Of a stretch of DNA of 64,000 bases, positions 7,925-45,077 are shown piece by piece. Every line of letters begins with the position of its first letter. Positions within the stretch are counted from its first letter, which is position 1. Source of the stretch: Thermoanaerobaculia bacterium (GTDB taxonomy: Bacteria; Acidobacteriota; Thermoanaerobaculia; Multivoradales; UBA5704); the NCBI GenBank assembly GCA_044226625.1, contig JBGAGQ010000012.1, forward strand, positions 32,001-96,000. Reading direction: 5' to 3'. Position numbers and translations under genes: made by a program. The notes beneath the pieces are model-generated. The model ran no database searches and had not been told where the DNA came from. It was given only the letters and a program-made list of their open reading frames with translations.

Positions 7925-8209
7925 CGGAATCTCCTTCCCCTGCCGGGGTTGGAGCAAAGGATCTCACACCGCGCGGGCCCGGAGGCTCCCGGCCGCAGGA
8001 GAGCCTCGAGGAGCCGGCGAAGGTAGCGAAAATCTTTGCGCGAATCGAGCTGCTCGACTACCGGATGCCCAAGGGAAGCTCTTTCGCGCTTCCTTCGCAC
8101 CTTGTCATCGCGGATTGGGGGGGCTTAAGGCTCTTGAAAGCTAGAATCCGCGCAGAAGCTTGTCCCCGGGTCACCTTCGGCCCGGACCCCCTTCAAGGAG
8201 GAGCGCATC

Positions 8210-8410
8210 GTGCAGAGGAAGAATAAGAAGCTCAATCTCGGCCGAGAGACTCTCATCGCATTGGACTTGCATCAGATCGCGGGGGGGTTCGGCTCGGGCA
8301 CGGTCAACTGCACCACCTTGATCTCGACGGTTTGCACCAACACGTGCCCGAGTGATTGCCCGACGTGTTTCTCTGATGTGCCGGACTGGACCTGTTTTCC
8401 CCGAGGCTGA
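8210..8410 (+). CDS. Putative RiPP (lanthipeptide-like) precursor 1
   Basis: Leader KKLNLGRETLIAL, GG cleavage motif (IAGG), and a core rich in Cys/Thr/Ser with 6 Cys. Strong RBS AAGGAGG, with a TAGAAT -10-like box upstream. Confidence 0.8.
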   Translation: MQRKNKKLNLGRETLIALDLHQIAGGFGSGTVNCTTLISTVCTNTCPSDCPTCFSDVPDWTCFPRG

Positions 8411-8473
8411 GCCCGTCTTCGGCCCGGCTCCGAGAACCGCTCGAGCCCCTCGAAGCCGGCTACCGGGTCGAGC

Positions 8474-9133
8474 TCAAACTCCCGGCCGAATCCAGGCGCG
8501 GGCGGCGAGCGCCAGGAACTCCCGCCCTTCGAGCAGCCGGGCTCGGTCGTCGCCGAGGTCCTCGAAGAGGAGGGCGATCGACAGCTCGTGGCCGGACTCC
8601 TCGAGCAGCGACTGCAGCGTGGGGGAAAGGTCGTCCGGGCCGTAGATCCAGGTCTCGACCGAGGCGATGTGAGGGGCGGTCACCGCCTCTCCGGCGACCC
8701 GGCGCGGCTCCAGGCGCTGGACCTCGCGTTGACTGTAGCGCAGCGCAGGGGGTGCCCCGAGGAGGACCAGCGCCTGGCCGCGCGGTGTGAGCGAGCCGCG
8801 GCGGTCTCCTCCCGCGTAGAGGTTGTCGGCCGCCGCCACCCGGTCGTTGAAGGTGATCAGGGCCGGGTTGCCGGGAACCGCGGGGTCGGGATCGCGGCGC
8901 TGCCAGAAGCGATCGATCGCCGCGAGCACCGCCCGGTCGTCGCGCAGGCGCCGGATCTCTCCGGCCTCGTCCGGGAGGAGGAGCCAGCGCGCCGGCCCCT
9001 CGGCCCAGGCGCGCGCGGCGCCGGCCGGGCTTCCGGCCGAGGCGCAGGCGAACAGGCCCACGAGCAGCAGGACCGCGTAGCCGCGTTTCGGCGCGATCGC
9101 CGCCACCGCAGAAAGGACGAGCGAGGCGTCCAT
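8474..9133 (-). CDS. GWxTD domain-containing protein
   Basis: FWQRRDPDP...N, RVAAADNLY, degenerate GSLTPRG..LVLLGAP and ETWIY. Has a signal peptide. Confidence 0.8.
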   Translation of the reverse strand: MDASLVLSAVAAIAPKRGYAVLLLVGLFACASAGSPAGAARAWAEGPARWLLLPDEAGEIRRLRDDRAVLAAIDRFWQRRDPDPAVPGNPALITFNDRVAAADNLYAGGDRRGSLTPRGQALVLLGAPPALRYSQREVQRLEPRRVAGEAVTAPHIASVETWIYGPDDLSPTLQSLLEESGHELSIALLFEDLGDDRARLLEGREFLALAARAWIRPGV

Positions 9134-9137
9134 GGCC

Positions 9138-9419
9138 TCAGTGGACGTTGTCGTCCCCCTCCGGGCCGGGTGCCTCGGGGATCGGTCCGAAGGTCTGCTC
9201 GTAGCGTTCGAGGTTGGTCGCGAGCGCCCGGACGATGCGCTTGAGATGCCCCGGGCTGGTGATCACGCGGGCGGCGACGATCCCCTGCGGCGGCACCAGA
9301 TTGACGAAATCGAGGATGAACTCCTCTTGGGTGTGGAGGATGCGCAGCAGGTTCGAGTAGCGCCCCTTGAGCTCGTCGTCCTCGATCTTGATGTTGAGCG
9401 CTTCGTCGGTGGGCGGCAC
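9138..9419 (-). CDS. DUF3467 family protein
   Basis: YSN...HTQEEFILDF...ARVITSPGHLKR...YEQTFGPI pattern. Confidence 0.85.
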   Translation of the reverse strand: MPPTDEALNIKIEDDELKGRYSNLLRILHTQEEFILDFVNLVPPQGIVAARVITSPGHLKRIVRALATNLERYEQTFGPIPEAPGPEGDDNVH

Positions 9420-9536
9420 GGTTTCCTAGCCTCCTTAGAAGAGTGGGCGCGCGGCGGGCTGCTCCGCCGCGGCGCAGGGGCGGAGCCTGCCGGCCGAAAC
9501 CGGGCATCGCCGCAACCTCCGCTCGAGCTCTTTCGA

Positions 9537-10844
9537 TCAGTCTACACCCGCTCCCGGTCCCTCGTCGGCAGCCCAGGCGATCCCCCCCTCGAAGTCGAAT
9601 CGATGCTCGGGGAAGTACACCCCTTCGCCGCGCTCGCGGGAGGTGACCGTGAACCCGAGCACCTTGCGCCGGTAGTCGTAGGGAGCGCCGTCGCGGGCGT
9701 GGACGGCGACGTCGACCAGGTATTCGCCGGGCGCGAGACGAAGCGAGGGGCAGTGGATCCGCACCCGCCCCTCCCCTTCCAGCCGCTCCGGTCGCCAGCC
9801 GGCGAGGTCGGTATTCGTTCCCCAGCAGGCGATGCCGCGCGGGGTGGCGATTGCAATGCCGAAGACGAAATCCTCGAGCGGCCGGCCGGCTCGCACGACG
9901 ATCTCGAAGGTCGCCGGAGCGCCCGATTCGAGCAGGTGGCGCTCCTCGGCTTCGGCGCCCTCCCCGACGCGCAGCCGGACGGCGACGATCTCCGCCTCGC
10001 GCGAGCCCCAGCGCAGCGGCTCGGTTTCGCCTTCTCCGGTTTCCTCGGGGGCCTTCTCGCCCTGGGCGCGATGCTCCCCCTCCTCGCGCTCGGCGACCTC
10101 TTGCCGGTAGGCGTCGATCGCCCGCCGCGGGTTGCCCACCAGGCGCTGCTTGCCCCCTTCGAGCCAGAGCGCGCGGTCGCAGAGACCCGCGACCAGGTCG
10201 AGCGAGTGGGAGACGAAGAGGACCGTCTTGCCCTGGACCAGGAGCTCTTCGATGCGCCGCAGACAGCGGTGGGAAAACTGCTCGTCGCCGACCGCGAGCA
10301 CCTCGTCGACCAAGAGGATGTCGGGATCGGTGTGGATCGCCACCGAGAAGCCGAGCCGCACGTACATGCCGGAGGAGTAGTTCTTGACCGGCTCCGCCAT
10401 GAAATCGGCGAGCCCCGAGAACTCGACGATCTCGTCGTACCGGCGGTCGATCTCCTTCCGCGAAAGCCCGAGCACGGCGCCGTTGATGTAGACGTTCTCG
10501 CGCCCCGAGATTTCCGGGTGGAAACCCGCGCCGAGCTCGATCAACGCGGCGACCCGGCCGGCGACCTCGACGCGCCCGGAGGTCGGCCGGATCATCCCGG
10601 CGATCAGCTTGAGCAGCGTCGACTTGCCCGAGCCGTTGCCGCCGACCACGCCGAACGCCTCGCCCCGCCCGACCGTGAAATCGATCCCGTCGAGCGCCAC
10701 GATCGCCTCACCGCGCGTGAGATTCCGCGTCAGGCTGCGCTCGACGAGCGCGCTCTTCAAGGTCCGGAACTGGTCGCGGGGGGCGGTCCGCCGATAGAGC
10801 TTGACCAGCCCTTCGACCCGGATCGCGGGATCGGATCCGCTCAC
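9537..10844 (-). CDS. wzt: Polysaccharide ABC exporter ATP-binding subunit with C-terminal Wzt_C domain
   Basis: GGNGSGKST, YSSGMYVRLGFS, LVDEVLAVGD and a C-terminal beta domain. The GTG start overlaps the wzm stop. Confidence 0.9.
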   Translation of the reverse strand: MSGSDPAIRVEGLVKLYRRTAPRDQFRTLKSALVERSLTRNLTRGEAIVALDGIDFTVGRGEAFGVVGGNGSGKSTLLKLIAGMIRPTSGRVEVAGRVAALIELGAGFHPEISGRENVYINGAVLGLSRKEIDRRYDEIVEFSGLADFMAEPVKNYSSGMYVRLGFSVAIHTDPDILLVDEVLAVGDEQFSHRCLRRIEELLVQGKTVLFVSHSLDLVAGLCDRALWLEGGKQRLVGNPRRAIDAYRQEVAEREEGEHRAQGEKAPEETGEGETEPLRWGSREAEIVAVRLRVGEGAEAEERHLLESGAPATFEIVVRAGRPLEDFVFGIAIATPRGIACWGTNTDLAGWRPERLEGEGRVRIHCPSLRLAPGEYLVDVAVHARDGAPYDYRRKVLGFTVTSRERGEGVYFPEHRFDFEGGIAWAADEGPGAGVD

Positions 10845-11644
10845 GCGGCCTCCACGAGCGTCTCGCGCAGACGGTCGAACAGCCATGCGCCGGCGCACCA
10901 GGCGAGCGCCGAGACGACGACCATGTGCAACCAGAGGGAGGGCTCCGGCATCCGGCCTTCGAAGATGGTCCGCTGGTAGGCGAGCGCGAACGGCGCGAAC
11001 GGATTCGCGCGGATCGCGAGCTGCACCTTGGGCAGCGCGACGAGCGCTTCGATTCGATAGAGGATCGGGGTGAGGAAGAACCCGAGCGCGAGCAGGTTCG
11101 TGAGCAGGTCGCGGACGTCCTTGAAATGGACGTTCAGCGCCGCGAGCCCGAGCGCGAGCCCGGCCACCAGCGGCACCTCGAGCAGGACCACCGCCGGAGC
11201 GAGGAGAGACGGCCACCCCCCGACCGGATGGCCGTAGGCGCGACCGACGAAGATCGCCCCGACGAGGATCGGCGTCGCGAGCAACAGATGGAACAGGTTC
11301 GAGAGGACCGCGACCGCGGGGAGCAGCTCAACGGGAAAAACCGCCTTCCTCAAGAGGCCGGAGTTGGCGGTGAGCGACACCGTTCCTTCGAGCAACGAGG
11401 TCGACAGCCAGATCCACGGAAAGAGGCCGCTCACCACGAACAGCGAATAAGGGTCGGCGCCGGAGACCCGGGGCCGGAAGATGACGGAAAAGACGAACGT
11501 GTAGACGCCGAGCAGGAGCAGCGGATTGGCCAGCGACCAGAGGTAGCCGAGCGCCGAGCCGCGATAGCGCGCCGCGAGCTCGCGGGTGGTGAGCGTCCAT
11601 AGCAGCGCGCGGAAACGGAAGATCTGGGCGGCGACCTGGAACAT
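10841..11644 (-). CDS. wzm: Polysaccharide ABC exporter permease
   Basis: RELAARYRGSALGYLWSLANPLL, FFLTPILY and NPF motifs, with about 6 TM segments. Confidence 0.9.
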   Translation of the reverse strand: MFQVAAQIFRFRALLWTLTTRELAARYRGSALGYLWSLANPLLLLGVYTFVFSVIFRPRVSGADPYSLFVVSGLFPWIWLSTSLLEGTVSLTANSGLLRKAVFPVELLPAVAVLSNLFHLLLATPILVGAIFVGRAYGHPVGGWPSLLAPAVVLLEVPLVAGLALGLAALNVHFKDVRDLLTNLLALGFFLTPILYRIEALVALPKVQLAIRANPFAPFALAYQRTIFEGRMPEPSLWLHMVVVSALAWCAGAWLFDRLRETLVEAA

Positions 11645-11740
11645 GGCGGAGGGCCGATCTTGTCACGAGAGTCCGCATGCCCTCGTTTCCCGCCGGGTTT
11701 GCCGAGCGGCCGGCGGCACCGGCCGCCGGCCGTTTCGACC

Positions 11741-11926
11741 TCAGCAAATGCAGGAGTTGAAGTCCGTGACGCGCGGCTGGCACTCCGCGAGGTACTTGGT
11801 GACGCAGCCCTGACAGACCGTGAACGAACAGCCGTTGGAGACGTTCGGCCCGGCGCCCGCGCCCGAGAGCGCTTCCGGATTCAGGTTCTGGAGGGTCTCG
11901 CGGTGGAGGGAGAGCTTCTTGCGCAT
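11741..11926 (-). CDS. Putative RiPP (lanthipeptide-like) precursor 2
   Basis: Leader MRKKLSLHRETLQNL, GA/AG junction, and a core with 6 Cys plus Ser/Thr. RBS GAAGGA. Confidence 0.8.
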   Translation of the reverse strand: MRKKLSLHRETLQNLNPEALSGAGAGPNVSNGCSFTVCQGCVTKYLAECQPRVTDFNSCIC

Positions 11927-12074
11927 GGTGGCATCCTTCGAGGGAAGTCCGCGGGCTTGAGCGACCGGGACTGGACTTGCCCTCTTAGGCGCAGCGCCCG
12001 AACCGTTTCCCTCACGCGCGGCGAAACGCGGCGAAATTCTCGAGCGAAGCGGCGGCGGTAGACTCGCGCCCTCG

Positions 12075-14345
12075 ATGGAATCGGTCCTCGTCCCCCTGCT
12101 CCCGGGCCTTTACATGGCGGCGCTCGCGGCCGTCTTACTGACCGCTTTGCGCCGATGGTGGGATCCCGTCCCTCTCGGCGTCGCGGCGGCGTTCGGCGTC
12201 GCGTTGCTCGCGCTGTTCGGCGGCGTGCTCTTCCGCGGCGAGATTCTCCTGCCGCTCGACAACCTGCGCGGAGAGGCGCCGTTTCGCGAGCTCGCCCCGA
12301 CCGTGCCACACGGCAACCTGATCCAGGGGGATCTGATCCAGCTCGTCGCGCCGAGCCAGGTGGAGGTCCGACGGGCGTTCGCGGAAGGTCGGTTGCCGTT
12401 CTGGAACGAACGGGTCGGAGCGGGCATGCCGCTGCTCGCCGATCCGCAGGCGCAGGTGCTCCAGCCGCTCGTGCTTCTCGCCCTGCCGTTCCCGCTCGGC
12501 GCCGCGGCCGGAGTGACGGCCGCGCTCCGCGTGCTGCTCGCGCTGGTCTTTACCTTCCTGTTCCTCCGGCGCGTGGGGCTCGGCTCGGGCGCGGCGCTCT
12601 GCGGCGCGTTCGGCTTCGGGCTCGGCGGCTTTGTCCTGCTCTGGCTCGGCTGGCCGATGGCGAGCTCGGCCGCCTGGCTGCCGGCGGTGCTCTACGCTTT
12701 GACCGTCCTGGCGCAACGGCAGGTCCGGCGCGACGCGTTCCTGCTCGGCTTCGCGCTGTTCGGACTGCTCCAGGCGGGTCACCCCGAAACGATCGCCTTC
12801 GCGCTCGTCTTCGCCGCGGCGTTCGCCCTGGTTCTCGCCCGTTCGCTCGCCGGCCGCTCGCGCCGCCCCTTCGGCACGCGCGCCGCCTGGGCGCTCGCGC
12901 TCGCCGTGGGGCTGGGCGCCCCGACGCTCCTGCCGGCGGCGCTCTACCTGCCGCACACGGCTCGCGCCGCGCGCGAGCAGGCCCGCCTCGCCGCGCTCGC
13001 CCCGTCCGGAGCGGCCGTCGTCGCGCGGACGATTCCGCTCTTCGCTCCGAACGCGCAGGGCAACAGCCGCTACCTCGACTATTGGGGGCCGAACAACACA
13101 AACGAGGACGCCTGCGCCTTCGCCGGCACGATCCTCCTGCTCGCCGCGCTCGTGGGGGCCGGGACCCTGCCCGGTGGACGCCGATCTGCTCGGGGCCGCG
13201 ATCTCGGAGGGGCCGCACGGGCGAGCCGCTTTCTCCTCGCCGCCGGAACGATCGCCGCCCTGGGCGCCGTGGGGCTAGGACGAACCCGGCTGCTCCTGAT
13301 CGCGGCCTTCGCCGTCGCCGCGCTCGGGGCGATCGCGATCGAGCGCTTCGCCCGCGGCGACGGCTCGCGCGCCGCGGCGCTCGGGCTCGGCCTCCTCCTC
13401 GCCGCGGGCCTCGCCTGGGCTTACCTCGCGCACCCCGACCCGGGCGATCCGGACCGCATGGCGGTCTTCCGGCTCGGCTGGCTCCGCTGGCAGCTCCGAT
13501 TCCTCGGCGCCGGCCTGGTGATCCTGATCGTCGCGCGGGGCCGACGGTTCCTGCCGTACCTGCTCGCGCCGCTCGTCGCCGCGGAGCTCTTCCTGATCCA
13601 CGCTCCGGCGAATCCGCCGATGCCCGCGCGCCTGCTCTTTCCGACTCCTCCGGCGATCCGGTTCCTCGAGGGCCACGTCCGGCCCGGGGAGCGGATCGCC
13701 GCGCTCGGCCGCGCGCTACCGCCGAACCTCGCGACGCTCTACGGGCTCTCGGACCTCCGCATCTACAACCCGGCGATGCCCGCGGCCTGGGAAAAGCTGG
13801 TCGCGCCGCTGGTCGACCGGCGCCTGGCACCGGGGCGCGGCGAGGTGCCGGCGTTTGGCCGGCCGCTCGATCCTCTCTATCCCCGTCTCGGCGTGCGCTT
13901 CCTGCTCACCGAGCCCGAGGCGACGCTGCCGCCGCCGCTCCGGCGGGTCTACTCGGACGGGGCGGCGCGGATCTGGGAGATCCCGGGCCCGTCGCCGCTC
14001 GCCTTCGCCGCCGGCCGCCCGGGACCGGAGGCGAGGCTCGGCATCGAGCGGCTCTCCCCCGCACATCTGCGTCTCCAGGTGCCTCCGGCGCTCCGCGGCA
14101 CGACCTGGCACCTCTCGACGGCCTTGTTCGACGACGGCGGTTGGCGCCTGCGGACCGACGACCGGGCCACGTCCACGGGCCACGAGCGGAACGCGCTCCT
14201 TTCAGCCGAGATCCCCGCCGGGACCGAGACGATCGAGATCGCCTACCGGCCGCCGGGGTTCGTCGCCGGCTGCCTGCTCGCGGCCCTCGCTGTCGGCGGG
14301 GCGATCCGCCGCGCCCGCGTGCCCGAACCGGTCGCTCGCGGCTAG
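12075..14345 (+). CDS. YfhO-like multi-TM GT-C glycosyltransferase
   Basis: LPFWNERVGAGMPLLADPQ, GHPET, many TM helices, and C-terminal DGGW...IAYRPPGF. Confidence 0.8.
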   Translation: MESVLVPLLPGLYMAALAAVLLTALRRWWDPVPLGVAAAFGVALLALFGGVLFRGEILLPLDNLRGEAPFRELAPTVPHGNLIQGDLIQLVAPSQVEVRRAFAEGRLPFWNERVGAGMPLLADPQAQVLQPLVLLALPFPLGAAAGVTAALRVLLALVFTFLFLRRVGLGSGAALCGAFGFGLGGFVLLWLGWPMASSAAWLPAVLYALTVLAQRQVRRDAFLLGFALFGLLQAGHPETIAFALVFAAAFALVLARSLAGRSRRPFGTRAAWALALAVGLGAPTLLPAALYLPHTARAAREQARLAALAPSGAAVVARTIPLFAPNAQGNSRYLDYWGPNNTNEDACAFAGTILLLAALVGAGTLPGGRRSARGRDLGGAARASRFLLAAGTIAALGAVGLGRTRLLLIAAFAVAALGAIAIERFARGDGSRAAALGLGLLLAAGLAWAYLAHPDPGDPDRMAVFRLGWLRWQLRFLGAGLVILIVARGRRFLPYLLAPLVAAELFLIHAPANPPMPARLLFPTPPAIRFLEGHVRPGERIAALGRALPPNLATLYGLSDLRIYNPAMPAAWEKLVAPLVDRRLAPGRGEVPAFGRPLDPLYPRLGVRFLLTEPEATLPPPLRRVYSDGAARIWEIPGPSPLAFAAGRPGPEARLGIERLSPAHLRLQVPPALRGTTWHLSTALFDDGGWRLRTDDRATSTGHERNALLSAEIPAGTETIEIAYRPPGFVAGCLLAALAVGGAIRRARVPEPVARG

Positions 14346-14355
14346 AATCGCGACC

Positions 14356-14664
14356 ATGGCCGAGACGAAAAAGCTCTCCGTCCGCTGCCCCGATTGCGGC
14401 TCCGATCTGGTGGTCGACGCCGCGACCGGCGAGGTCCTCTCGCATCGCAAGCCGAAGGCGCCCCTCGGCGGCGGCCGCGATTTCGCCTCGCTGTTCCGCG
14501 AGCTCGACGAGAGCAAAGCGAAAGCGGAGACCCTGTTCGAGCGGGAGAAAGCGGCGTTCGAAGACCGCGACCGCCTGCTCGAAGAGAAGTTCCGCGAGGC
14601 GATGAAGCGCGCCGAGGAAGACCCGGATCAGGGACCTCCGAAGCGCCCGTTCGACCTCGACTAG
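14356..14664 (+). CDS. Conserved small protein with CPxC zinc ribbon and coiled coil
   Basis: MAETKKLSVRCPDCGSDLVVDAATGEV...RPFDLD. TAGAAT lies just upstream. Confidence 0.8.
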   Translation: MAETKKLSVRCPDCGSDLVVDAATGEVLSHRKPKAPLGGGRDFASLFRELDESKAKAETLFEREKAAFEDRDRLLEEKFREAMKRAEEDPDQGPPKRPFDLD

Positions 14665-14735
14665 CGCGTCTTTTGCGGCGGCGCGCACTCCCTTTCGGGG
14701 ACCAAACCCCACACGAAAGAGAAAGCGAGGCCCTA

Positions 14736-14885
14736 GTGAAGAAGCGCACTCCGCCCAAGCTCCTCCTCAACCGCGAAACGCTCAAGACCTTGACCGGCGA
14801 GAGCGCGAAGGACGGGCTCCAGGCCGTGGCCGGAGGCTTCACCTACTCCGACGTGCGCAACTGCAGCGTCTGCTACTGCGAGTAG
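14736..14885 (+). CDS. Putative RiPP precursor 3 (49 aa; not separately called in the ORF track)
   Basis: GTG start. MKKRTPPKLLLNRETLKTL...AVAGG-FTYSDVRNCSVCYCE shares the leader motif of precursors 1 and 2. Confidence 0.75.
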   Translation: MKKRTPPKLLLNRETLKTLTGESAKDGLQAVAGGFTYSDVRNCSVCYCE

Positions 14886-15154
14886 TCGTCCCCCGGGAGG
14901 CGCGACCTCGGGCCGCCTCCCTTCTCTCCTTTCGATCCGCTTGCGAATCAAGGACTTGAGGTAAACTTCCACCCCGCGTGGCCCGCTCAAGGGCCCCCGC
15001 CGGACGCTTTTGGACCGCGCCCCCCGGTCGTCTGGGGATGCCTCGCGGCAGGGCGTCACGAGCGCGAAACGACCGCAGCATCCGAAATGCGCCTGGACGC
15101 GGTGCGACCGAGCAGAGAGCGCCCGCCAGCGAGCGCGTGAGAGAGGAGCCGAAC

Positions 15155-28426: not shown

Positions 28427-29962
28427 ATGGAGCACGCTCAGACGGCTTCACGTTACGGAACGCTACTCTTCTTCCTCGCGGCCGTCTTCTTGCTCGCCGC
28501 CGCGGGTTTGAACAGCGCCATGGATTCGGCGGTCGACAAGCTGGATCGTCTCACTACTCGATACTCCGAAGCCGAGACCATGCTGGGTAAAGCCCGTTCA
28601 GCCAGGTTAAAAGGGGAAAACTTTTACTCGGCTGTGAGTCTCCAGATTCTCATTCAAGAGTGGTGGAGAAAGACGGACGAAAAGCTTCCTACGGATTACG
28701 GCGATAGTTTTGCAGATCGGCCGGTGAGCCTGCCAGGCTTCTCGCAGATGAAACTCACCGTAAATCCAGTGAGTGGTGACTATTGGACAAGGTTCTACCG
28801 ACAGAACGATCTTTACCGGGTCCCCCTGTTTCGGCAACTCGAAAAGGGGGCAGAAAGTTTCGGAAAGGAAGCAAAGAGGATCGATAGTCTTCCAGAGGCT
28901 CCGGAACAAAAGGCGCGGTTGCTGGATATCGCCCTGGTCCAGTCATTCCCGAGCAAGACGGCGCGCGAGATCTTGGCCGATGACTTCATGGACATTCTCG
29001 TCGAGAAGAAGAATGTCGATCGGAATATCAGATGCTGGATTGCACTGGACGATTGGCCCTGTCGGAGCGGCGGTACTGCTACGGGGGTTGGAGTCTCCTA
29101 TCTCCGGCGAGATGAACGATTTCTATGGGTTCAAGATTCTCGGGATCACATCTTCAACTCGCTGGGCATCGCAAAGAATCAGGACGAAGCCGAGGCGCTG
29201 CTGAAAGAAGAGTGGATCAGGGCCCATGACGCACTGCTCGAGTTCAAGATACCCATGACGCAGGTGAGCCTTCCGGGTAGCGGCTTGACTCTTTCGGTAG
29301 GCGACGTGCTCTTGCTCGCAGGCCCGCTCCTCATCTATTTCCAGATTCTTTTCCTGGTATCCAAGGAACGGATGGCGGTGTCCGGATCGGAAAAAGAGGC
29401 CTTCGTCTTTCCACAGTTCTCAGCACCGGACGATCCGCTGGTTTCGCTCAAGGGCACGAGGCTGGCAGGATTCAGCGAGAGAATCATCTGGTTACTCTTC
29501 TTGGTCGCGCCGATCGCGGTTCTAACGATCGCCGTGGTGACGCGGTACGATTTCATGAGTCTTTCAGCGTACAGCGGCCTTCCCTGGATCAAGAAGATCG
29601 AATACAGCAGGTCTTCCGACGGGTTTTCAGCTCTTCTCGACCTCATCAACCTCGGCTTTCTCGGCATCGCGTTGGTCGTCGCGATTCGGCTCACGACCCT
29701 TCACCGGTCAGCCAGTCGGTACATTTCGGATCGCAATTACCGATCCCTGACGGTTCTGTTGTTGAACCTCTTCACCGTCACTTTCCTCGCCGCTGGTTGG
29801 AGTCTTCTCGGTAGAGAAATTCCGGTGTGGGGGACCTATTTCCTCGCCTTCGCTGTTCTCTGGTTGGCGGGATTCCTCGTGGCTTTGGTTCGAGGTGCTT
29901 GGACGATGGCACTTCTTTCGGCTGGCGGATTCGCACTGGGGTTATCCATTCTCATTGGCTAG
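28427..29962 (+). CDS. Hypothetical multi-TM membrane protein (lower GC, likely acquired)
   Basis: Long ORF with an N-terminal TM, a soluble domain and several C-terminal TMs. GGAGAG RBS. Confidence 0.65.
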   Translation: MEHAQTASRYGTLLFFLAAVFLLAAAGLNSAMDSAVDKLDRLTTRYSEAETMLGKARSARLKGENFYSAVSLQILIQEWWRKTDEKLPTDYGDSFADRPVSLPGFSQMKLTVNPVSGDYWTRFYRQNDLYRVPLFRQLEKGAESFGKEAKRIDSLPEAPEQKARLLDIALVQSFPSKTAREILADDFMDILVEKKNVDRNIRCWIALDDWPCRSGGTATGVGVSYLRRDERFLWVQDSRDHIFNSLGIAKNQDEAEALLKEEWIRAHDALLEFKIPMTQVSLPGSGLTLSVGDVLLLAGPLLIYFQILFLVSKERMAVSGSEKEAFVFPQFSAPDDPLVSLKGTRLAGFSERIIWLLFLVAPIAVLTIAVVTRYDFMSLSAYSGLPWIKKIEYSRSSDGFSALLDLINLGFLGIALVVAIRLTTLHRSASRYISDRNYRSLTVLLLNLFTVTFLAAGWSLLGREIPVWGTYFLAFAVLWLAGFLVALVRGAWTMALLSAGGFALGLSILIG

Positions 29963-30161
29963 CCTGGAGCTGCGCGAGGAAGAGCGCGGCGGGCCCCCTC
30001 CGCCGGAGATCGAATCCGGCGTTCTCGCGCCGGAGTGTCTGGAAATGCTCCAGCGCCCGCGGAAGCGGAGCCTCTGACGCCCACCTTCCCCACGAACACC
30101 ATCGTGTTTATGCTCCGGAAAGGAGAAGACACGAGGGTGTTTCTCCAGGAGGGCGCTCAAC

Positions 30162-31455
30162 TTCTACTTTCCGCGACAGTTCGACGAGGTGTTGGCCGCT
30201 TGGGCTCGGGGGGCGGGCCGCAAGCCTCTGTTTCCTCGAGCTCAACCTGGAGCGATACGCGGACCTCTCCCTCGTGCGCTCCTGCCGTTCTGCGGACGAT
30301 CTTCTGAAAGCTCTCGCCGCGCGCCACAACGTGACGGCCTTCCCGGAGCGGACGCTCCTGTTCCTCGATGAGGTGCAGGAGAGCTCCGAGGCGATCCAGT
30401 GGCTGCGTTTCTTCCATGAGGACCATCCGGAAATCGCTGTGGTGGCGGCCGGCTCGCTCCTGGAAGTCCGATTGGAAGAGCGGGGATTCTCCTTCCCCGT
30501 GGGCAGGGTGACCTTCCGGACGCTGCGCCCTTTGAGCTTCCAGGAGTTTCTCAAGGCGTCCGGTAAGGACGTGCTCGCCGAGGGGATCCGCGTGGGGGAG
30601 GTCCCCGGCTCCGAGACCGCGGTGCCGCTCCATACCCAAGCGCTCTCCCTGCTCCGGGACTACCTGCTGGCCGGGGGCATGCCCGAGGCGGTCCGGACGT
30701 GGGTCGAATCGGGCAGCCCGGCCGCCGTCCGGCAGGTCCAGTCGGATCTGATTCAGGCGTTCGCGGAGGACATCCAGAAATACCGGAGCGGCGTCTCGGC
30801 ATCCGACCTCGAGGCCGCGTTCGACAATCTGCCGCACCATTACGGTCTGCGATTCCGCTACGAGAACTTCGCCCCGGGCTTCAAATCGCAGCGGATGAAG
30901 GACGCCCTCGGCAAGCTCGAAGCGGCGCTGCTGATCGCGCGCGTATGGCCCACGCACTCGGTCCAACTGCCGCTCGCCGTCCGGGCCAGATCCGCGCCGA
31001 AACTCCTGCCGCTCGACGTCGGTCTCGCGCTCCATACCCTCGGCACGGGATACCAGGCGCTCGCGTCCGAGCCCCTGGAGCGCCTGTTGGACGGCCGGCT
31101 CGCCGAGATCTTCGTCGGCCAACAGCTTCTCGCCTCTCGATCGGCCGCCGCCGAGCCGCTGTTCTTCTGGGTGAGCGAATCCGCGCGAGCCAACGCCGAG
31201 ACCGACTATCTGTTACCCGGCGCGGGCTATCCCGTACCCGTCGAGGTCAAGGCGGGGGCTGCCGGATCGCTCAAGTCGCTCCACCAGTTCCTCTTCCGGG
31301 CGGGCTGCGAGCTCGGGATCCGCCTGCACGCGGGGACCTACGGCGATGAGCGCCTCAAGGTAAAGATGCCGGAGGGGGAACTGGCGTACCGCCTGATCTC
31401 GCTCCCGATCTATCTGGCGGAAGAGGTGGCGGCTTGGTTGAGTCGGAGAGAATAG
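30162..31455 (+). pseudogene. AAA_14 + DUF4143 ATP-binding protein with Walker A deleted/frameshifted
   Basis: N-terminal LAAWARGAGRKPL in one frame joins directly to FLELNLER in another frame, and the GxRQxGK[ST] segment is absent. The rest is intact (LFLDEVQ, AAGSLL, GGMPEAV, PVEVKAG). Confidence 0.75.
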
Positions 31456-37636: not shown

Positions 37637-40489
37637 GTGACGACGATTTTCCACAGCGCCTTTTGGGCGCACAGCCTCACGCTCGAAGCTCCGCCCGGAA
37701 CGATCGAAAGCCTTTCACGTTCCCTCACAAGCGCTCGTGTGGACCTCAATCCTCATCAGGTCGACGCAGCTCTCTTCGCCATCCAGTCTCCCCTGTCTCG
37801 CGGTGTAATTTTAGCCGACGAAGTGGGCCTCGGGAAAACAATAGAGGCAGGCCTGGTAATTGCTCAGCGCTGGGCTGAACGTCGGCGCCGCATATTGCTG
37901 ATTGTGCCTGCAACCTTACGAAACCAGTGGCAGCAGGAACTCTCAGACAAATTTCAGCTACCAGTCCGCATTCTTGATGCTGCCACATATCGGGCGTTTA
38001 GTGCACCAGGAGAGGCAAATCCCTTCGACAGCCAGGATTCAATTCTGCTGTGCTCGTACCAGTTCGCAGCAATAAAAGCCACGGATATGAATGCTGTCGA
38101 GTGGGATCTCGTTGTCTTAGATGAGGCCCACCGGCTACGCAATGTGTACAAGGGAAACTCTAAGATTGCCCAATCCATAAAGGATTCTCTCGCCCTAAGG
38201 CGAAAACTGCTACTAACCGCCACGCCACTCCAAAACTCGCTTCTCGAACTGTACGGTCTTGTGAGCCTTATCGACGACTATGTCTTCGGCGACATCGCCA
38301 ACTTCCGCGAACAGTTCATGCGCGGTACCAATGAGAGCCGACGGAACGAGAATTTACGATTGCGAATTCAGCCGTTGTGCCGTCGGACACTGCGGAAGCA
38401 GGTTCAAGAGTACGTGCGGTTCACTAAGAGAGTTCCCATCACCCAGAGATTTGTTCCGAGCGATGCAGAACAGAGTCTTTATGACAGCGTTTCGGCGTAC
38501 CTCCAGCGCGAGGAGTCATACGCCCTACCTAGTGGACAGCGCACGCTCTTGACGATGGTTCTTCGGAAGCTACTCTCCTCCTCCACCTACGCCATCGCGG
38601 GTACGCTTCACCGAATGATCAATCGGCTTGAGGCAGTTGAGCAGCAAGCTTCGGAGCAACTCCTCGATGAGGTGGATTTCGAGGCGATACGCGAAGTCAT
38701 TGACGAATGGAACGACCTCCCACCGCCCAACGCGAGTGAGGCGAATTCCTCGATTGACTTAAAGTCCCTTCGCACCGAACTCGACGAGCTACGGCAATAT
38801 GCGGCTGCGGCCGATCGTATTCCGACCAACTCCAAAGGCGACGCGCTTCTGCTCGCGCTCCCGTTAGCCCTTGAAAAGGCGGAGTCTCTAGGCGCGCCTC
38901 GCAAAGCTGTACTATTCACCGAATCCAGGCGCACACAAACCTACCTTGCTCTGTTGCTGGCAGGCAACGGCTATGCCGGGCAGATGGTTCTGATCAACGG
39001 CGACAATAGTGATCCAGATTCACGCGCAATCTTCGAGAACTGGCTCGAGCGCCATCGCGGTTCCGAAAGAGTCTCAGGCTCGCGAGCCGTCGATACCAAG
39101 GCAGCGCTTGTCGAGGAGTTCCAAGATCGCCGGACACTCCTGATCGCGACGGAGTCCGCCGCCGAAGGAGTAAATCTCCAGTTTTGTTCACTCGTCGTCA
39201 ACTACGATCTCCCTTGGAATCCCCAGCGCGTCGAACAGCGGATCGGCCGTTGTCATCGCTATGGCCAATTGCATGACGTTGTCGTGGTGAATTTTCTGAA
39301 CGATCGCAATGCCGCAGACCAACGGGTCTTTCGCTTGTTGTCAGAAAAATTCAAACTCTTTGAAGGGGTGTTCGGCGCAAGCGACGAAATCCTAGGGGCA
39401 GTGGAGTCTGGCGTCGACATTGAGCGTCGGATTATGGACGTGTATCAGACTTGCCGAACACCCGAAGCCATCGCACAGGCGTTTGATCGACTACAGGAAG
39501 ATCTCGAACCTCAGATTGGCGAGACGATCAAGGCAACGCGACGCGCGATTCTCGAGAACTTCGACGATGAGGTGCAAAGGCGCCTTAGAGGAGTAAAAGA
39601 CGAAGCCGATAGAATGTTGGTAGGCCACCAGCAGTCGCTCTGGTGCCTTGCGAAACACGAACTGGCCGGCAGGGCATCCTTTGATGAGTTGGACAAGTTC
39701 ATGACTCTACTAGATGGTACGTCGCGATCCTACTACCTCTCGTGGCCCGTAGCTGATAAGAAGGACGCAATATTCTTCCACCCCAGCCACGAAATTGCGT
39801 CGCAACTCATAAGTGCCGCGAAATCGAGAACCCTCAAGCCAAGGCATCTACGTTTCGAGTATAGGTCTCCACCGCGGTATGTCGCGCTAGAGCCCTACCT
39901 CGGCTGTAGCGGATGGCTAGAACTAACCCGCTTATCCATCGAACAACGCGGTACGGAAGAGCACCTCATTGCCGCTGCGATTCTCGACGGCGGAGCGCCC
40001 CTCCCTCCAGACCTAGCAATCAGGCTTTTTGACCTTGAGGCTAAAGTGGAAGACCCTGCACGCGGCGTTGCGCCAGTCTTCGACGAGATTCGAACTCGTG
40101 AGGCCGATCGCGTTGCAGCCACTGCCCGCCGACGCCACGAGCAGGCGCTCGCGGTGGAGGAATCTAAGCTCGAGCAATGGGCGGAGGATGCAAAGGGTGG
40201 ACTTGAACGCGATCTAAAGACCCTCGATAGCGAAATTCGGGAGGTGAGAAGGGCAGCCCGCAATGCACCAGCATTGGCCGACAAATTGGACGGCCAGCGT
40301 CGTATCCGCGACTTAGAGGGGCGCCGAAACCGCAAGCGCAGGGAGTTGTTCGAGCAGCAAGACAGAATTGATGCGAAGAGAGACGAGCTGATACTTGCAA
40401 TCGAAAGACAGCTCGATCTCCAGATCAAGGCCGTTCAAGTTTTTTCCATCTCTTTCACAATACACGATTCGCGCAGAGAGGAAAGGTGA
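37637..40489 (+). CDS. SNF2-family helicase (RM/defence-island type)
   Basis: LNPHQ, LADEVGLGKT, LDEAHRLRN, LTATPLQN, EGVNLQ and YDLPWNPQRVEQRIGRCHRYGQ, with a C-terminal coiled coil. Confidence 0.93.
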   Translation: MTTIFHSAFWAHSLTLEAPPGTIESLSRSLTSARVDLNPHQVDAALFAIQSPLSRGVILADEVGLGKTIEAGLVIAQRWAERRRRILLIVPATLRNQWQQELSDKFQLPVRILDAATYRAFSAPGEANPFDSQDSILLCSYQFAAIKATDMNAVEWDLVVLDEAHRLRNVYKGNSKIAQSIKDSLALRRKLLLTATPLQNSLLELYGLVSLIDDYVFGDIANFREQFMRGTNESRRNENLRLRIQPLCRRTLRKQVQEYVRFTKRVPITQRFVPSDAEQSLYDSVSAYLQREESYALPSGQRTLLTMVLRKLLSSSTYAIAGTLHRMINRLEAVEQQASEQLLDEVDFEAIREVIDEWNDLPPPNASEANSSIDLKSLRTELDELRQYAAAADRIPTNSKGDALLLALPLALEKAESLGAPRKAVLFTESRRTQTYLALLLAGNGYAGQMVLINGDNSDPDSRAIFENWLERHRGSERVSGSRAVDTKAALVEEFQDRRTLLIATESAAEGVNLQFCSLVVNYDLPWNPQRVEQRIGRCHRYGQLHDVVVVNFLNDRNAADQRVFRLLSEKFKLFEGVFGASDEILGAVESGVDIERRIMDVYQTCRTPEAIAQAFDRLQEDLEPQIGETIKATRRAILENFDDEVQRRLRGVKDEADRMLVGHQQSLWCLAKHELAGRASFDELDKFMTLLDGTSRSYYLSWPVADKKDAIFFHPSHEIASQLISAAKSRTLKPRHLRFEYRSPPRYVALEPYLGCSGWLELTRLSIEQRGTEEHLIAAAILDGGAPLPPDLAIRLFDLEAKVEDPARGVAPVFDEIRTREADRVAATARRRHEQALAVEESKLEQWAEDAKGGLERDLKTLDSEIREVRRAARNAPALADKLDGQRRIRDLEGRRNRKRRELFEQQDRIDAKRDELILAIERQLDLQIKAVQVFSISFTIHDSRREER

Positions 40490-40698
40490 TGACGATAGAT
40501 GAGCCAGCGGGACTTTTTGACCTCACTCCGAGCCAACGTTTAGCGAAAGAGATCGCGCAGGCGCTAGTAGAGGAAGGTCTTGTCGAGAAGGCGAAGAGCC
40601 AAAAACTGGAGTTGGGCCTTGCTGAGGGTTCTCTTGGTCCTGGCGATTGGAGAGTCTTTGTCGAGGTGGCCGCCGACCGTGAGCGGAAATGCCAATGA
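40486..40698 (+). CDS. Small hypothetical protein coupled between helicase and ATPase
   Basis: Overlaps both neighbours. TPSQRLAKEI...GDWRVFVE. Confidence 0.7.
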   Translation: MMTIDEPAGLFDLTPSQRLAKEIAQALVEEGLVEKAKSQKLELGLAEGSLGPGDWRVFVEVAADRERKCQ

Positions 40699-43010
40699 AA
40701 ACTTTCCCGGGCATTAACCGTCTTGTTGTAGCAGGGTTTCGAGGAGCTACGTCGCGGCTTGAGATGGAACTCTCATCTGAACAGCCGTTCGTGGTGCTGT
40801 TTGGTGAGAACGGCAGCGGAAAGTCAACCTTGGTTGACGCGATCGAGTTCGCGCTGACGGGGACAAAAGGTTCCCTTAGCGACTTCAAGTCGACCTCGAT
40901 CAAACACCTGGCTACCACCGGCACAGATTCTTCACCGCTAAGCGTGCTCCTCGAAGCGGGCGGAAAGACATGGTCCGGCAGGCTTGAGGGAAGCAAGCCT
41001 GAGCTTATGGGGCCGAAAGCGCGGCCTCGCATCGACATTCTCAGGCGGTCCCGTCTGACGAAGATTGTCGCTGCTGGCCCCACCGAACGCTTTGAGCAAC
41101 TCGATAAGTTTGTGAACTGCGACCGAATCGTAAAGAGTGAAGAGGGACTCTCGGTGGCAGACAGGGAAGCAAAGAATCGCCTGGAGGAAGCGAGCAAGAC
41201 AATCGAGGAATCGAGGAACTCCCTCCGTGAACTCTGGGATGAACAAGGGAGGCCGGACGGCGACGCGCTGACCTGGGCGAGAAAGGAATCCTCATTGCCG
41301 TTTGACGGTGCCTCCGGAGGAGACTCGGTCCACCGATGGTTAACAACCTGTCAGCGGCTACTTGGCGATTTAGTTAGAGCTTGGGACAACAGAAAGGATG
41401 CCGAATCGAACCTGGCTGCAAGCACCTCCTCTCTGAGATCGACAGACTTTCAGGCGGGCGGCGACTCGGCACCAGACGAATCAGATCTAATCCGAATATT
41501 GTCAGCGGCACGTGATTATTTTAAGAGTCAGGTCTTGGTTGACGCTTGCCCGCTCTGTCAGCAGGCTGTCAGAGTGGGTGAACTTCGCGCGCAAACCGAT
41601 AACCGCCTTAGAGCGTTGCAGGAACAAATCGACCGGCTTGAGAGACGATCGGGGCTTCAAACGAAGATAGAACGGCACCAGGTAGAGCTGAATCTCGCTG
41701 AATCCGCAGTGTCCGAAGCCGGAAAGGAGATTTCCCGCCAGACGGCAGAGCCGCCACTTTCCGTCGATGGTGAAATCGTGGGCGATCTTGTGAGGGTTTC
41801 CACCGCCGGAAAAGGAACTGACTTCGCCCCGGGTTCTTCGATTCGCCTAACCGCCGAGAGCTTAGGCAGGAGGATTGAGGAAGCCGCTCGTGCGATTTCG
41901 AGGGGCATCGAGCGTCGCAACCAAGTCGCAAGAGTGTGGAGACAACACGAGAAGGCTCTTCAGGAAGGCAAGCGGCTGGAAGACGAGGGCAAGAGGCTTG
42001 CGCGCTGCCTGCAACTCGTGCGTCGTAAACGACTGGAATTTGTGGACACTCTTCTCAGAGATGTCGCAGGCGAGGTCAACCGACTATATGGTGAGATTCA
42101 TCCAGGTGAAACAGAATTGGGTGGTGCGCGGTTCTACCTCGATCCAAAACAGCGAGCCTCGCTGCATCAAGTGGTGAAGTTCGGCAACCAGGATGAGTTA
42201 CCTCCCCAGGCGTGCTTTAGCGAGTCCCACCTATTAACCCTGGGTTTCTGTTTGTGGCTAGCGCTCGCAAAGCGTGAAAGACCTCAGGAAACGGTCATCG
42301 TGCTCGACGATGTGGTATTTGCCATTGACGGACCGCATATGAAGAGGCTGGCAGCGTTGATTTCTGTTGAGCGCAAGCATTTCGCTCAAGTGATTCTTAC
42401 GACTCATTCTAGACGCTTTCTTCGCTACTTGCGCGACGGGATAGCGCCCAGCGGCAATATGGATCTCCGCACTCTTAGATGGAGCCTCAGCGGTGGAATC
42501 GTTGAAGGCTCAACCCCACATCTCGCAGCAGATCTAGAGTCTGCGTTATCGAATCCATTGATTGACAGGCAGGCAATCGCCTCGAAAGCAGGCAATCTCC
42601 TTGAGATAATACTTCGACACTTTGCCTTGCTCTATCGGCGGCGAGTTCCATTTGCGGAACCGAATGAGCCCAATCTCGCTGAACTTTTTGATTCTTGGAC
42701 TGTCAAAGAGGCCAACCGCGTTGAAATACAGAGGAGGTCCGAAGACCAGAGCTATTCCCCGATTGGAAACCTCGGAGCGATCCTGACGAGGTTGCGAGAC
42801 CTAAGAGACGTTCGTAATCTTGTCGGTGCGCATGCAAATGCGGAGGCGGACGAGGTTTCAGACGCCGAGGTTCAGGAGTTTGGCAGAACAGTCCTAGAGC
42901 TTTGGCGACTAGTTGTTTGCTCTTGCGGACAGATTCCGCAGAAGTCGAAAAATGGAGCCTTCTTCTGTCATTGCCGATGCCTCAGCTTACGGCCAGATCG
43001 TGTTGACTGA
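40689..43010 (+). CDS. SMC/Rad50-like ABC ATPase with zinc hook and putative C-terminal HEPN
   Basis: GFRG, Walker A GENGSGKS, CPLC hook within coiled coil, signature FSESH, Walker B VLDDV, H-loop TTHS, and C-terminal RNLVGAH with a Cys cluster. Confidence 0.85.
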   Translation: MPMKTFPGINRLVVAGFRGATSRLEMELSSEQPFVVLFGENGSGKSTLVDAIEFALTGTKGSLSDFKSTSIKHLATTGTDSSPLSVLLEAGGKTWSGRLEGSKPELMGPKARPRIDILRRSRLTKIVAAGPTERFEQLDKFVNCDRIVKSEEGLSVADREAKNRLEEASKTIEESRNSLRELWDEQGRPDGDALTWARKESSLPFDGASGGDSVHRWLTTCQRLLGDLVRAWDNRKDAESNLAASTSSLRSTDFQAGGDSAPDESDLIRILSAARDYFKSQVLVDACPLCQQAVRVGELRAQTDNRLRALQEQIDRLERRSGLQTKIERHQVELNLAESAVSEAGKEISRQTAEPPLSVDGEIVGDLVRVSTAGKGTDFAPGSSIRLTAESLGRRIEEAARAISRGIERRNQVARVWRQHEKALQEGKRLEDEGKRLARCLQLVRRKRLEFVDTLLRDVAGEVNRLYGEIHPGETELGGARFYLDPKQRASLHQVVKFGNQDELPPQACFSESHLLTLGFCLWLALAKRERPQETVIVLDDVVFAIDGPHMKRLAALISVERKHFAQVILTTHSRRFLRYLRDGIAPSGNMDLRTLRWSLSGGIVEGSTPHLAADLESALSNPLIDRQAIASKAGNLLEIILRHFALLYRRRVPFAEPNEPNLAELFDSWTVKEANRVEIQRRSEDQSYSPIGNLGAILTRLRDLRDVRNLVGAHANAEADEVSDAEVQEFGRTVLELWRLVVCSCGQIPQKSKNGAFFCHCRCLSLRPDRVD

Positions 43011-43079
43011 GTCGTCGGCGACCTTTCGTAGAACTCACGAGGAGGTTCCACTTTCAGGGGGAGTTTCATTGGGCGCGAT

Positions 43080-43478
43080 GTGTCAGGAGCGGACTTCCTT
43101 AGGGTCACCTTCAGTGAAATTAACTCGACCGTGACCCACATGGCGTTAAGCGGTCACCTTGAAGCGGTCCGCTGGGCCTGCGGATCGGTCTTCGCGATTG
43201 CGGCGTTGGCCTTCCTCGCCTTTTTCGTCGCCCTCTACCGGGGCGAAGACGCGCTTCTGCCGATCGGCCTAATGACGATCGCGTCTTTCGTCTTCTCGCA
43301 GCTCACCTCGTGGGTCTCTTTGCGTCTACTGCTCCGATGGCGAGCCCCGACTCGGGAGGATCGCAAGAGAATTCGATACTGGACGTTGTGGGGCGGTGCA
43401 TTCGGGTGGATCTTGGTGATCTGGACCTTGACGGACGTAGAAGCCACGCCCCCATTCTTCAAGGATTGGAATCGGTGA
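43080..43478 (+). CDS. Small membrane protein
   Basis: Three hydrophobic segments. Start uncertain. Confidence 0.45.
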   Translation: MSGADFLRVTFSEINSTVTHMALSGHLEAVRWACGSVFAIAALAFLAFFVALYRGEDALLPIGLMTIASFVFSQLTSWVSLRLLLRWRAPTREDRKRIRYWTLWGGAFGWILVIWTLTDVEATPPFFKDWNR

Positions 43479-43539
43479 GCTAGATCCAGCTCCGATCCAT
43501 CGACAGCGTGGAGGCTATCCCCCTTCGCCGCGACCTCCT

Positions 43540-44715: not shown

Positions 44716-44834
44716 GAACGAACGATATCCGATGGGCTCTTGAAGAGGCCTGGACCTTCGGTCCGTCGGCGAGGGACGGGCGGCGTGGGGCGGGCAAGGG
44801 GAGTACAATTGCTGCGGAGATCGGAGGATTCGCA

Positions 44835-45077
44835 ATGCCGAACGGCAGCGTTCAACTTGACCCGCAGACCGCGATCGCTGTCGAACGCTTGGCTCTGCGC
44901 AGGGATCAGAGCGCTTCCGAGGTCGTACGCGAAGCGATCGCGATGCTGTCTTCTCAGGAAGAGGGCTCCGCGTACGAACGCGTTGGGGACCTGATCGGCT
45001 GCGTCAGCGGGGGTCCTTCTGATCTATCCGAAGAGACCGGGAAAAAGTTCCGCGCGATTCTCGCCAAGACAGCATGA
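44835..45077 (+). CDS. vapB: RHH/CopG-type antitoxin
   Basis: SVQLD...LA...SASEVVREAI and G..DLSE. ATGA overlap with the PIN gene. Confidence 0.8.
   Translation: MPNGSVQLDPQTAIAVERLALRRDQSASEVVREAIAMLSSQEEGSAYERVGDLIGCVSGGPSDLSEETGKKFRAILAKTA

Follow-up and report, generated by a model that had tools for sequence, protein, structure and literature searches.

A probable class I lanthipeptide system with dispersed precursor genes in a Thermoanaerobaculia genome

Two kinds of described lanthipeptide system come closest to the one considered here. For Bacteroidetes, Walker et al. 2020 (PMC7268733) report that class I precursors carry an LxLxKx5L leader, often ending in GG, and that a C39 protease is found in the cluster. 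The mining described there reached seven genes on either side of a LanC-domain protein, and because of this range it could not have seen a dispersed arrangement. The other kind comprises the ProcM/SyncM class II libraries of marine picocyanobacteria, in which a single promiscuous synthetase serves many precursors (PMC7268733, PMC10783134, PMC9872173). The present analysis concerns three small open reading frames (ORFs) in a 64,000-nucleotide stretch of a Thermoanaerobaculia genome (GenBank assembly GCA_044226625.1, contig JBGAGQ010000012.1, positions 32,001 to 96,000 of the forward strand), referred to as a whole as the window. The three ORFs are probably LanA precursors of a class I lanthipeptide system whose genes are disaggregated. 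Genomic evidence also strongly supports a genome-wide precursor library that would be served in trans by a prochlorosin-like strategy, as a first-pass annotation of the window had proposed.

The source assembly is a metagenome-assembled genome (MAG) of 6.60 Mb in 133 contigs, with 67.7% GC, 97.9% completeness and 5.5% contamination. It is labelled G000 below, and the window is part of its contig C125. Precursor 1 (8210..8410, + strand) has a GTG start and 66 residues, with a leader of approximately residues 1-26 ending in AGG and a core of 40 residues that contains 6 Cys. Precursor 2 (11741..11926, - strand) starts with ATG and has 61 residues, with a leader of approximately residues 1-23/25 ending in GAGAG and 6 Cys in the core. 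Precursor 3 (14736..14885, + strand) has 49 residues, a 34-residue leader ending in AGG and a core of 15 residues with 3 Cys. Its frame ends at 14885(+), and the GTG at 14736 is the likely start; a longer TTG-initiated frame overlaps the upstream gene. The listing of ORFs confirms the description given in the first-pass annotation, namely three ORFs at these positions with a common KLxLxRETL leader, a GG/GA junction and unrelated cores rich in Cys, Ser and Thr. In all three, the string K-L-x-L-x-R-E-T-L-x-x-L follows a Lys/Arg-rich N-terminus, and both the LxLx[KR]x5L motif and a Gly-Gly or Gly-Ala leader end are present. The GG/GA site lies 23-34 residues from the start, between AGG and F, SGA and GAG, and AGG and F in precursors 1, 2 and 3, respectively. 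The cores are mutually unrelated in sequence.

The leader had been likened to a lanthipeptide leader, and it does correspond to a recognised type, represented by the NCBIfam model NF038153 (lant_leader_L1a) and by the motif that Walker et al. 2020 report (PMC7268733). That class I type and the genome studied here have the leader motif in common, with its spacing and its GG end, and likewise the link to a C39 protease or exporter, and LanB and LanC are present in both. Unlike in the clusters of that source, LanB, LanC and exporter are unlinked here, and about 54 precursors occur, mostly as single genes among housekeeping genes.

The size of the precursor family was established in several steps. 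A regular expression for the motif matched 47 six-frame positions in the genome, about 40 of them in small Cys-rich ORFs. An earlier profile, made from 43 regular-expression seeds, recovered 11 copies that the expression had missed. Two frames on contig C46 that had been part of the seed set are not members and were excluded before alignment. The cleaned set of 54 ORFs, 48-83 residues long, was aligned (alignment A1), and the final leader profile was built from the same 54. The consensus of A1 is MxKxxxKLxLxRETLxxL-x9-GG, in which L10 is invariant and L8, E13, T14 and L18 are at least 90% conserved. With this profile, 54 stop-to-stop frames were found at E<=1e-3 among 93,636 six-frame genome segments, compared with none in the same segments after reversal and none after shuffling of residues. 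The sharing of the motif within the window therefore exceeds chance. Two weaker, probable members are located on C76 and C9. Precursor 1 was matched by the earlier profile from regular-expression seeds at E 7e-10, and precursor 3 is the weakest family member (E 8e-5). For 41 of the 54 peptides the highest-ranking NCBIfam family is NF038153, but only 6 of the 54 exceed its 22-bit cut-off; precursor 2 reaches 18.3 bits (E 0.0019) and precursor 3 11.8 bits. NCBIfam scans of the 54 peptides returned no Nif11 or NHLP model (E<=1, or E<=10 for the three in the window). None of the window peptides has a Pfam match, and precursor 1 has neither an NCBIfam nor a Pfam match. Five relatives of precursor 2, with 72-84% identity, occur among public metagenome proteins.

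The 54 copies are spread over 32 contigs. The description of the precursors as orphans does not hold for all of them: three stand directly upstream of a LanC gene on contig C4, and 19 of the 54 have another precursor within 5 kb (six neighbouring pairs are less than 1 kb apart). The other 35 have no further copy within this distance. The Pfam scan of immediate neighbours covered 90 called genes flanking the 51 precursors outside the window: one is LanC, and the rest are heterogeneous, ordinary genes. The precursors in the window also sit among housekeeping genes, as had been stated, with neighbours such as an M49-like peptidase, a GWxTD protein, a Wzt/Wzm-type glycan exporter, a YfhO-like membrane protein and an NYN-domain protein. 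A separate observation concerns contig C96, where an 853-residue protein with a tryptophan-halogenase domain (L040:404-2965(-); PF04820, E 2e-105) lies 210 nt from the precursor L040:3-194(-), whose core contains three Trp. The N-terminus of this halogenase weakly resembles the RiPP (ribosomally synthesized peptide with post-translational modification) leader-binding domain TIGR03882, at 28.7 bits compared with a cut-off of 36.9, and the enzyme could be a leader-guided tailoring enzyme for the precursor family.

Codon composition and start-site signals make the 54 family ORFs look translated. Their pooled GC content at codon positions 1, 2 and 3 (GC1/2/3) is 0.517/0.551/0.848, with GC3 above 0.7 in 53 of the 54, and a GGAG, GAGG or AGGA site is found 4-20 nt upstream in 48 of the 54, compared with 897 of 5000 random start triplets. 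In the window, GC3 amounts to 0.76, 0.90 and 0.94 for precursors 1, 2 and 3, while real genes of this genome show approximately 0.85-0.9; the full values for precursor 1 are 0.43/0.54/0.76. A Shine-Dalgarno site, AAGGAGGAG, is located at 8195-8203, 7 nt 5' of the start of precursor 1. In the 110 nt that precede each of the 54 genes, no 7-mers other than Shine-Dalgarno ones are enriched, and no other flanking motif is shared by the precursors. The upstream folding energy is not below random (-25.6 vs -29.7±6.7), and the downstream 70-mers fold somewhat more stably (-33.3 vs -25.0±6.0). A consensus scan around the three window ORFs gave no promoter-like site and one terminator-like site (4.0±2.2 in shuffles), and Rfam gave no match within the window.

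The modifying enzymes are encoded elsewhere in the genome. The first-pass annotation had reported no maturase in the 64 kb, which is true for LanB (PF04738), LanC (PF05147), LanM (PF13575), SPASM (PF13186) and YcaO (PF02624) domains; the generic radical S-adenosylmethionine (radical-SAM) domain PF04055 was not searched in the window. It had also directed attention to lanthipeptide enzymes and a C39 transporter outside the window, and one LanB, two LanC and one such exporter are present, all apparently intact. The single LanB found with PF04738 is a protein of 1123 residues on contig C93. It has both the glutamylation and the elimination domain (PF04738 and PF14028; E 1.7e-171 and 1.1e-67) and matches the solved structures of MibB and NisB. 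It is flanked by a solute-binding-protein gene and a glycine-cleavage operon, with no adjoining precursor or LanC. The two LanC genes found with PF05147 are stand-alone, encode 432-438 residues and are located on contigs C4 and C114; their products are 41% identical. The C4 gene is immediately downstream of three tandem precursors, while the C114 gene stands by itself, with a PTPS gene on one side and a TonB-dependent receptor gene on the other. Both proteins keep GVAHGVPG (GxAHGxxG), WCYG and CHG, aligned by HMMER with the corresponding motifs of NisC; these motifs contain the catalytic His and the Cys-Cys-His zinc ligands. The LanM domain PF13575 has no match in the genome, in a search that was also matchless in all control genomes; an independent sign that there is no LanM is that the only LanC-like matches in the genome are the two stand-alone genes. 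The exporter is a single C39-peptidase ABC transporter of 787 residues, also on C93, approximately 42 kb from LanB. It is closest to the NHLP-type model TIGR03796 (623 bits, under the cut-off of 853 bits). With LanB on C93, the LanC genes on C4 and C114 and the window on C125, precursor, LanB and LanC are not co-located. A further observation on C4 is that the precursor-linked LanC is directly followed by a metallo-beta-lactamase-fold protein, L008:7322-8191(+), and then by a branched-chain 2-oxoacid dehydrogenase operon; this protein is most like YtnP-type quorum-quenching lactonases (194 bits, under the cut-off).

The proposed mechanism links these components as follows. The leader, with its M-K/R-rich start, L-x-L-x-[KR]-E-T-[LV]-x-x-L, approximately 10 variable residues and G-G/A, would be the handle for the single LanB. 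This enzyme would glutamylate Ser and Thr of the core and then eliminate glutamate to give dehydro-residues. One of the two stand-alone LanC proteins would add a Cys thiol to a dehydro-residue located a few positions N-terminal, producing thioether rings, and the single C39-peptidase ABC transporter would cleave after GG/GA and export the product. Because recognition would need the leader only, about 54 scattered and unrelated cores could be served in trans. Modification of the dispersed precursors by LanB and LanC is what we infer, together with the assignment of cyclases to cores, the ring patterns and any biological activity.

The composition of the cores bears directly on this mechanism. 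Statistics were obtained for the 53 cores with a callable GG/GA site, which have a mean length of 33.8 residues and contain 17.0% Cys, 14.4% Thr, 8.7% Ser and 0.7% Lys. This amounts to 5.75 Cys and 7.8 Ser+Thr per core, compared with 0.1% Cys in the leaders, and Ser+Thr equals or exceeds Cys in all 53. Cores so rich in Cys would also suit a different explanation, in which the products are unmodified, disulfide-bonded or metal-binding peptides with double-glycine leaders, exported by the C39 transporter, with no role of LanB or LanC for the dispersed copies. A GG/GA leader and a single C39 exporter suffice for such a class II bacteriocin-like pathway, and 51 of the 54 copies have no adjoining maturase. 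The double-glycine bacteriocins of PCAT/AMS systems share the GG/GA site after a hydrophobic, helix-like leader and the one C39-peptidase ABC transporter. However, core composition and the order of residues in the cores suggest that modification precedes export. An even number of Cys occurs in only 24 of the 53 cores. A Ser or Thr is found 1-6 residues upstream of Cys in 300 of 305 cases, whereas 1000 within-core shuffles gave 232.6±8.0 with a maximum of 261; downstream of Cys the count is 228, which is at chance level. Lanthionine rings join an N-terminal dehydro-residue to a C-terminal Cys. The one-sided rule of Ser/Thr before Cys is predicted by ring formation of this kind, and nothing would make a disulfide peptide follow it. 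The commonest spacing between Cys residues is 4 (52 cases vs 26.7 expected), and directly adjacent Cys are rarer than expected (9 cases vs 44.9). The chemistry of the cores fits thioether rings rather than disulfides.

Relatives of the enzymes provide a second line of evidence on the same question. The LanB protein was used to collect 80 LanB loci from contigs of one genome per species, with flanks of ±6 kb, some of which were short. Its nearest matches, at 75-85% identity, come from MAGs of uncultured Thermoanaerobaculia, Holophagales or Acidobacteriota, and relatives at approximately 50% identity occur in Archangium, Cystobacter, Kofleriaceae, Holophagaceae and others. In 31 of the 80 loci (Acidobacteriota, Myxococcota, Bacillota, Actinomycetota), including Paenibacillus solanacearum and MAGs of Bacillota and Actinomycetota, the leader profile has matches no more than 6 kb from LanB. 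These matches are often tandem arrays beside LanB and LanC, such as four in Kofleriaceae and six in Acidobacteriaceae. Since this leader type stands beside LanB in 31 of 80 loci, it is a genuine class I leader.

The distribution of the leader was surveyed in 40 related genomes and the window's own. It is present in 24 of the 41, including all seven congeners, each of which has 16-56 matches; the scattering of the leader over the genome, anticipated in the first-pass annotation, is thus found as 54 copies here and as similar sets throughout the genus. Within the bacterial family, some genomes have 0 or 1 match and others as many as 56. A LanB above 550 bits is encoded in 20 genomes, each of which carries the leader; among the 17 leader-negative genomes, the best LanB reaches 477 bits (G029). 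Four leader-positive genomes have no LanB above 550 bits: G011, G018 and G022, in which LanB is in pieces, and G025, in which it scores lower. In the first three, which have 27-55 leader matches, the LanB pieces are split between contigs or lie in adjacent frames; assembly breaks or frameshifts may account for them, or the dehydratases may really be split or decayed. An exporter orthologue with at least 55% identity is found in 22 of the 24 leader-positive genomes vs 1 of the 17 leader-negative ones, and each of the seven congeners has exactly one exporter, at 84-91% identity. The occurrence of the leader family only where a matching LanB occurs, and the embedding of the leader and exporter types in LanB/LanC clusters of relatives, are not expected of peptides that stay unmodified. 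In orthologous cores, moreover, Ser/Thr are kept at 96 of 100 positions vs 165 of 258 for other residues. With these results, an unmodified fate of the dispersed peptides is considered unlikely.

Gene order differs among relatives. Compact clusters occur in G024, G027 and G030, genomes that have only 1-7 precursors; the order is exporter, precursor, LanC and LanB in G024 and G027, and the exporter lies downstream of LanB in G030. G017 departs from this pattern: its LanB and LanC are clustered, but it has 44 leader matches. The exporter of G005 has kept a place directly upstream of LanB. In each of the eight genomes that represent the window's genus, LanB and LanC occupy separate contigs, and the number of LanC per genome is two to four. 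A quick maximum-likelihood tree of 32 LanB proteins was calculated with SH-like approximate likelihood-ratio (SH-aLRT) support and midpoint rooting for drawing only. The six LanB proteins of the window's genus form one clade (support 100), none with LanC in its flank, which is nested among Thermoanaerobaculia LanB proteins, 8 of 9 with LanC in the flank. This tree suggests that the linkage between LanB and LanC was lost on the branch to the window's genus, some of the flanks being short. A phylum-wide sample of 300 further genomes with at least 90% completeness, in which up to 26 candidates were scored for each genome, gave a leader match at E<=1e-6 in 10, G182 (unpublished) among them. The cases with several copies in this sample were G001, G025 and a further family, f47 (4-16 matches). 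The f47 genomes G150, G252 and G311 (genus g120) are small, at 3.3-3.8 Mb, and this second acidobacterial lineage suggests an independent expansion of the leader family.

A further explanation is that only the three C4 precursors beside LanC are true substrates, and that the dispersed copies are decaying, silent or repurposed. Canonical class I clusters keep their precursors beside the enzymes, and according to Walker et al. 2020 (PMC7268733) a class I precursor is the sole predicted one in its cluster in 62% of cases. The rate of turnover also suits this explanation, as does precursor 3, with its weak profile match and 15-residue core. Turnover was assessed by comparing all 38 precursors of the sister species G001 with the 54 of G000. 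Best-match identity is bimodal, with 15 peptides at or above 0.59 and the rest at or below 0.54. Only 13 of the 54 have a unique G001 partner with at least 55% full-length identity, the others being similar in the leader only, so that approximately three quarters of the peptide repertoire is species-specific. In the 13 orthologue pairs, however, the ratio of nonsynonymous to synonymous substitution rates (dN/dS) is 0.20 for the leader and 0.28 for the core (pooled, 0.2-0.3), values that are biased downward because the pairs were chosen by identity. Core Cys are kept at 74 of 75 positions, and the pairs show purifying selection. Twelve of the 13 pairs are dispersed copies rather than C4-cluster copies. 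In addition, the frames are intact, the translation signals described above are present in nearly all copies, the Ser/Thr-before-Cys rule holds across all cores and not only those of C4, and the Cys pattern of precursor 2 is kept in G006. A library restricted to the C4 precursors is consequently regarded as improbable, and a library that includes the dispersed copies is preferred.

The window itself provides a detailed view of gain and loss. Five sister genomes are syntenic around it at 72-88% DNA identity, and the three precursor-bearing stretches are unalignable. Precursor 1 lies in an intergenic stretch (7958..8473, no strand assigned) that cannot be aligned to the sister genomes, while the genes on either side can be aligned, with 74-82% DNA identity; the gap without alignment measures 640-720 nt here vs 29-220 nt in G001-G004. 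The positional orthologue of precursor 2 in G006 shares its Cys pattern, whereas this slot contains a different core behind a related leader in G004 and is empty in G001-G003. Precursor 3 is contained in a single-gene insertion of approximately 270 bp (14667..14938, + strand), delimited by alignment to the sister genomes. It consists of approximately 70 nt upstream with a Shine-Dalgarno-like site, then the ORF, then a GC-rich, hairpin-like tail. The block is absent from G001, G002, G003, G006 and G004, where the distance from the stop of the upstream gene to the conserved downstream sequence is 3-16 nt in the first four and 71 nt in G004. Inspection by eye revealed no flanking repeats or duplications at the precursor 3 indel. 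The window precursors are thus presence/absence indels inside conserved synteny.

Maturases of other types are also encoded in the genome, which has four SPASM proteins and one YcaO. It could be supposed that the cores are cross-linked by a radical-SAM/SPASM enzyme, as in sactipeptides or ranthipeptides, or by another non-lanthipeptide maturase. Weak matches to TIGR04149, a model for GG-leader radical-SAM targets, occur in 4 of 51 peptides, all under the cut-off, and Cxxx-repeat radical-SAM target models match two peptides, also weakly and below threshold. One of the four SPASM genes is directly upstream of a precursor on C17, and an StsB-like maturase is present on C31. Nevertheless, the closest resemblance of the C17 enzyme is to AhbD/NirJ2, which are heme synthases, and its gene stands beside those for cytochrome oxidase subunit II and an Fe-S carrier; the enzyme was rejected as a maturase. 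C17 apart, no SPASM gene adjoins any precursor, and the YcaO gene is on C5, a contig without a precursor. Cross-linking of this kind would also leave the Ser/Thr-before-Cys asymmetry and the co-occurrence with LanB unexplained, and it is considered very unlikely. The locus on C31 deserves mention in its own right: the radical-SAM/SPASM protein encoded by L139:1887-3368(+) resembles sactipeptide maturases of the StsB type most closely (184 bits, far under the cut-off), and just upstream of its gene is a 57-codon open frame with Cys, which the leader profile matches at E 3.5 only. The locus is possibly a separate RiPP system.

Several points weigh against assigning the window ORFs to a class I system. 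No maturase adjoins any of the three precursors, all three peptides are under the curated cut-off of NF038153, with precursor 1 lacking any match, and the core of precursor 3 is very short. The co-occurrence counts overstate the support, because genomes of kin are not independent, and the bias of the dN/dS values acts in the same direction. The contamination of the MAG is a further concern, yet the seven congeners show the same features. The literature search found no report of a class I enzyme that accepts so many unrelated cores, and the case for modification is drawn from genome sequence throughout. On the other side, every genomic prediction of the first-pass annotation that could be tested was borne out.

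The comparison with prochlorosins, drawn in that annotation, is valid for the strategy and fails for the enzyme family. As in the prochlorosins, a conserved leader precedes hypervariable cores, and dozens of precursors lie far from the enzyme, although the promiscuous synthetase acting in trans is only predicted here. In contrast to those systems, the machinery consists of a separate, Glu-tRNA-dependent LanB and LanC rather than a ProcM-like LanM, and no bifunctional LanM was found. Class I LanB enzymes are described in PMC9993889 as taking glutamyl-tRNA(Glu) for their co-substrate. The NCBIfam scans gave no Nif11 or NHLP leader model, phylum and habitat are different, and there are two to four cyclases per genome. 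Class I precursors with an LxLxKx5L…GG leader were known; the disaggregated architecture and the dispersed, fast-turning repertoire of prochlorosin size, which belong here to an uncultured Acidobacteriota genus, appear to be new. A dispersed class I precursor library in Acidobacteriota was not found in the literature, in a search that did not extend to subscription papers and supplementary precursor tables. One paper that combines Thermoanaerobaculia and lanthipeptides (PMC13083261) concerns class II/III clusters with a GMC oxidoreductase.

A broader proposal, towards which there is a slight lean, is that an Acidobacteriota lineage of soil and sludge has arrived convergently at the strategy of the prochlorosins, using class I chemistry. 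A scattered set of one LanB, two to four LanC and one C39 exporter would mature 16-56 hypervariable cores per genome. Self-contained precursor units of approximately 270 bp would be cleanly gained and lost at intergenic sites within housekeeping regions that are otherwise syntenic, and about three quarters of the repertoire would differ between congeners. If this is true, it would be the first natural, highly promiscuous LanB/LanC pair found in the searched literature, and a case where the mining of gene clusters misses nearly the whole product repertoire. Cluster-based mining, with antiSMASH or with RODEO windows around LanC, would find at most 3 of the 54 precursors, and estimates of the RiPP repertoire in uncultured Acidobacteriota would be too low. 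Lanthipeptide synthetases with broad substrate acceptance are prized for building libraries of cyclic peptides, and the cited papers name a class II system (ProcM/SyncM) as the natural example; if a class I set serves about 50 unrelated cores in nature, it would offer a second platform with a different mechanism. The presence or absence of single genes in conserved synteny would be a tractable system for studying the birth and loss of peptide libraries.

Two features of the window outside the precursor loci can be added. A low-GC island at 37637-44835 (GC 0.55-0.57 vs 0.68 for the genome) encodes a 950-residue SNF2-family helicase, a 773-residue SMC/AAA-type ATPase and a YhcG-type PDDEXK nuclease, and it looks like an acquired defence or mobile region. 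AAA_14/DUF4143 ATPase genes recur at 29827-31455(+) of the window, L020:3700-4944(+) and L034:3683-4840(-). The window copy is beside a second low-GC patch (28-30 kb, GC 0.59), and the other two directly flank dispersed precursors on other contigs; the recurrence may be a coincidence or a marker of variable regions.

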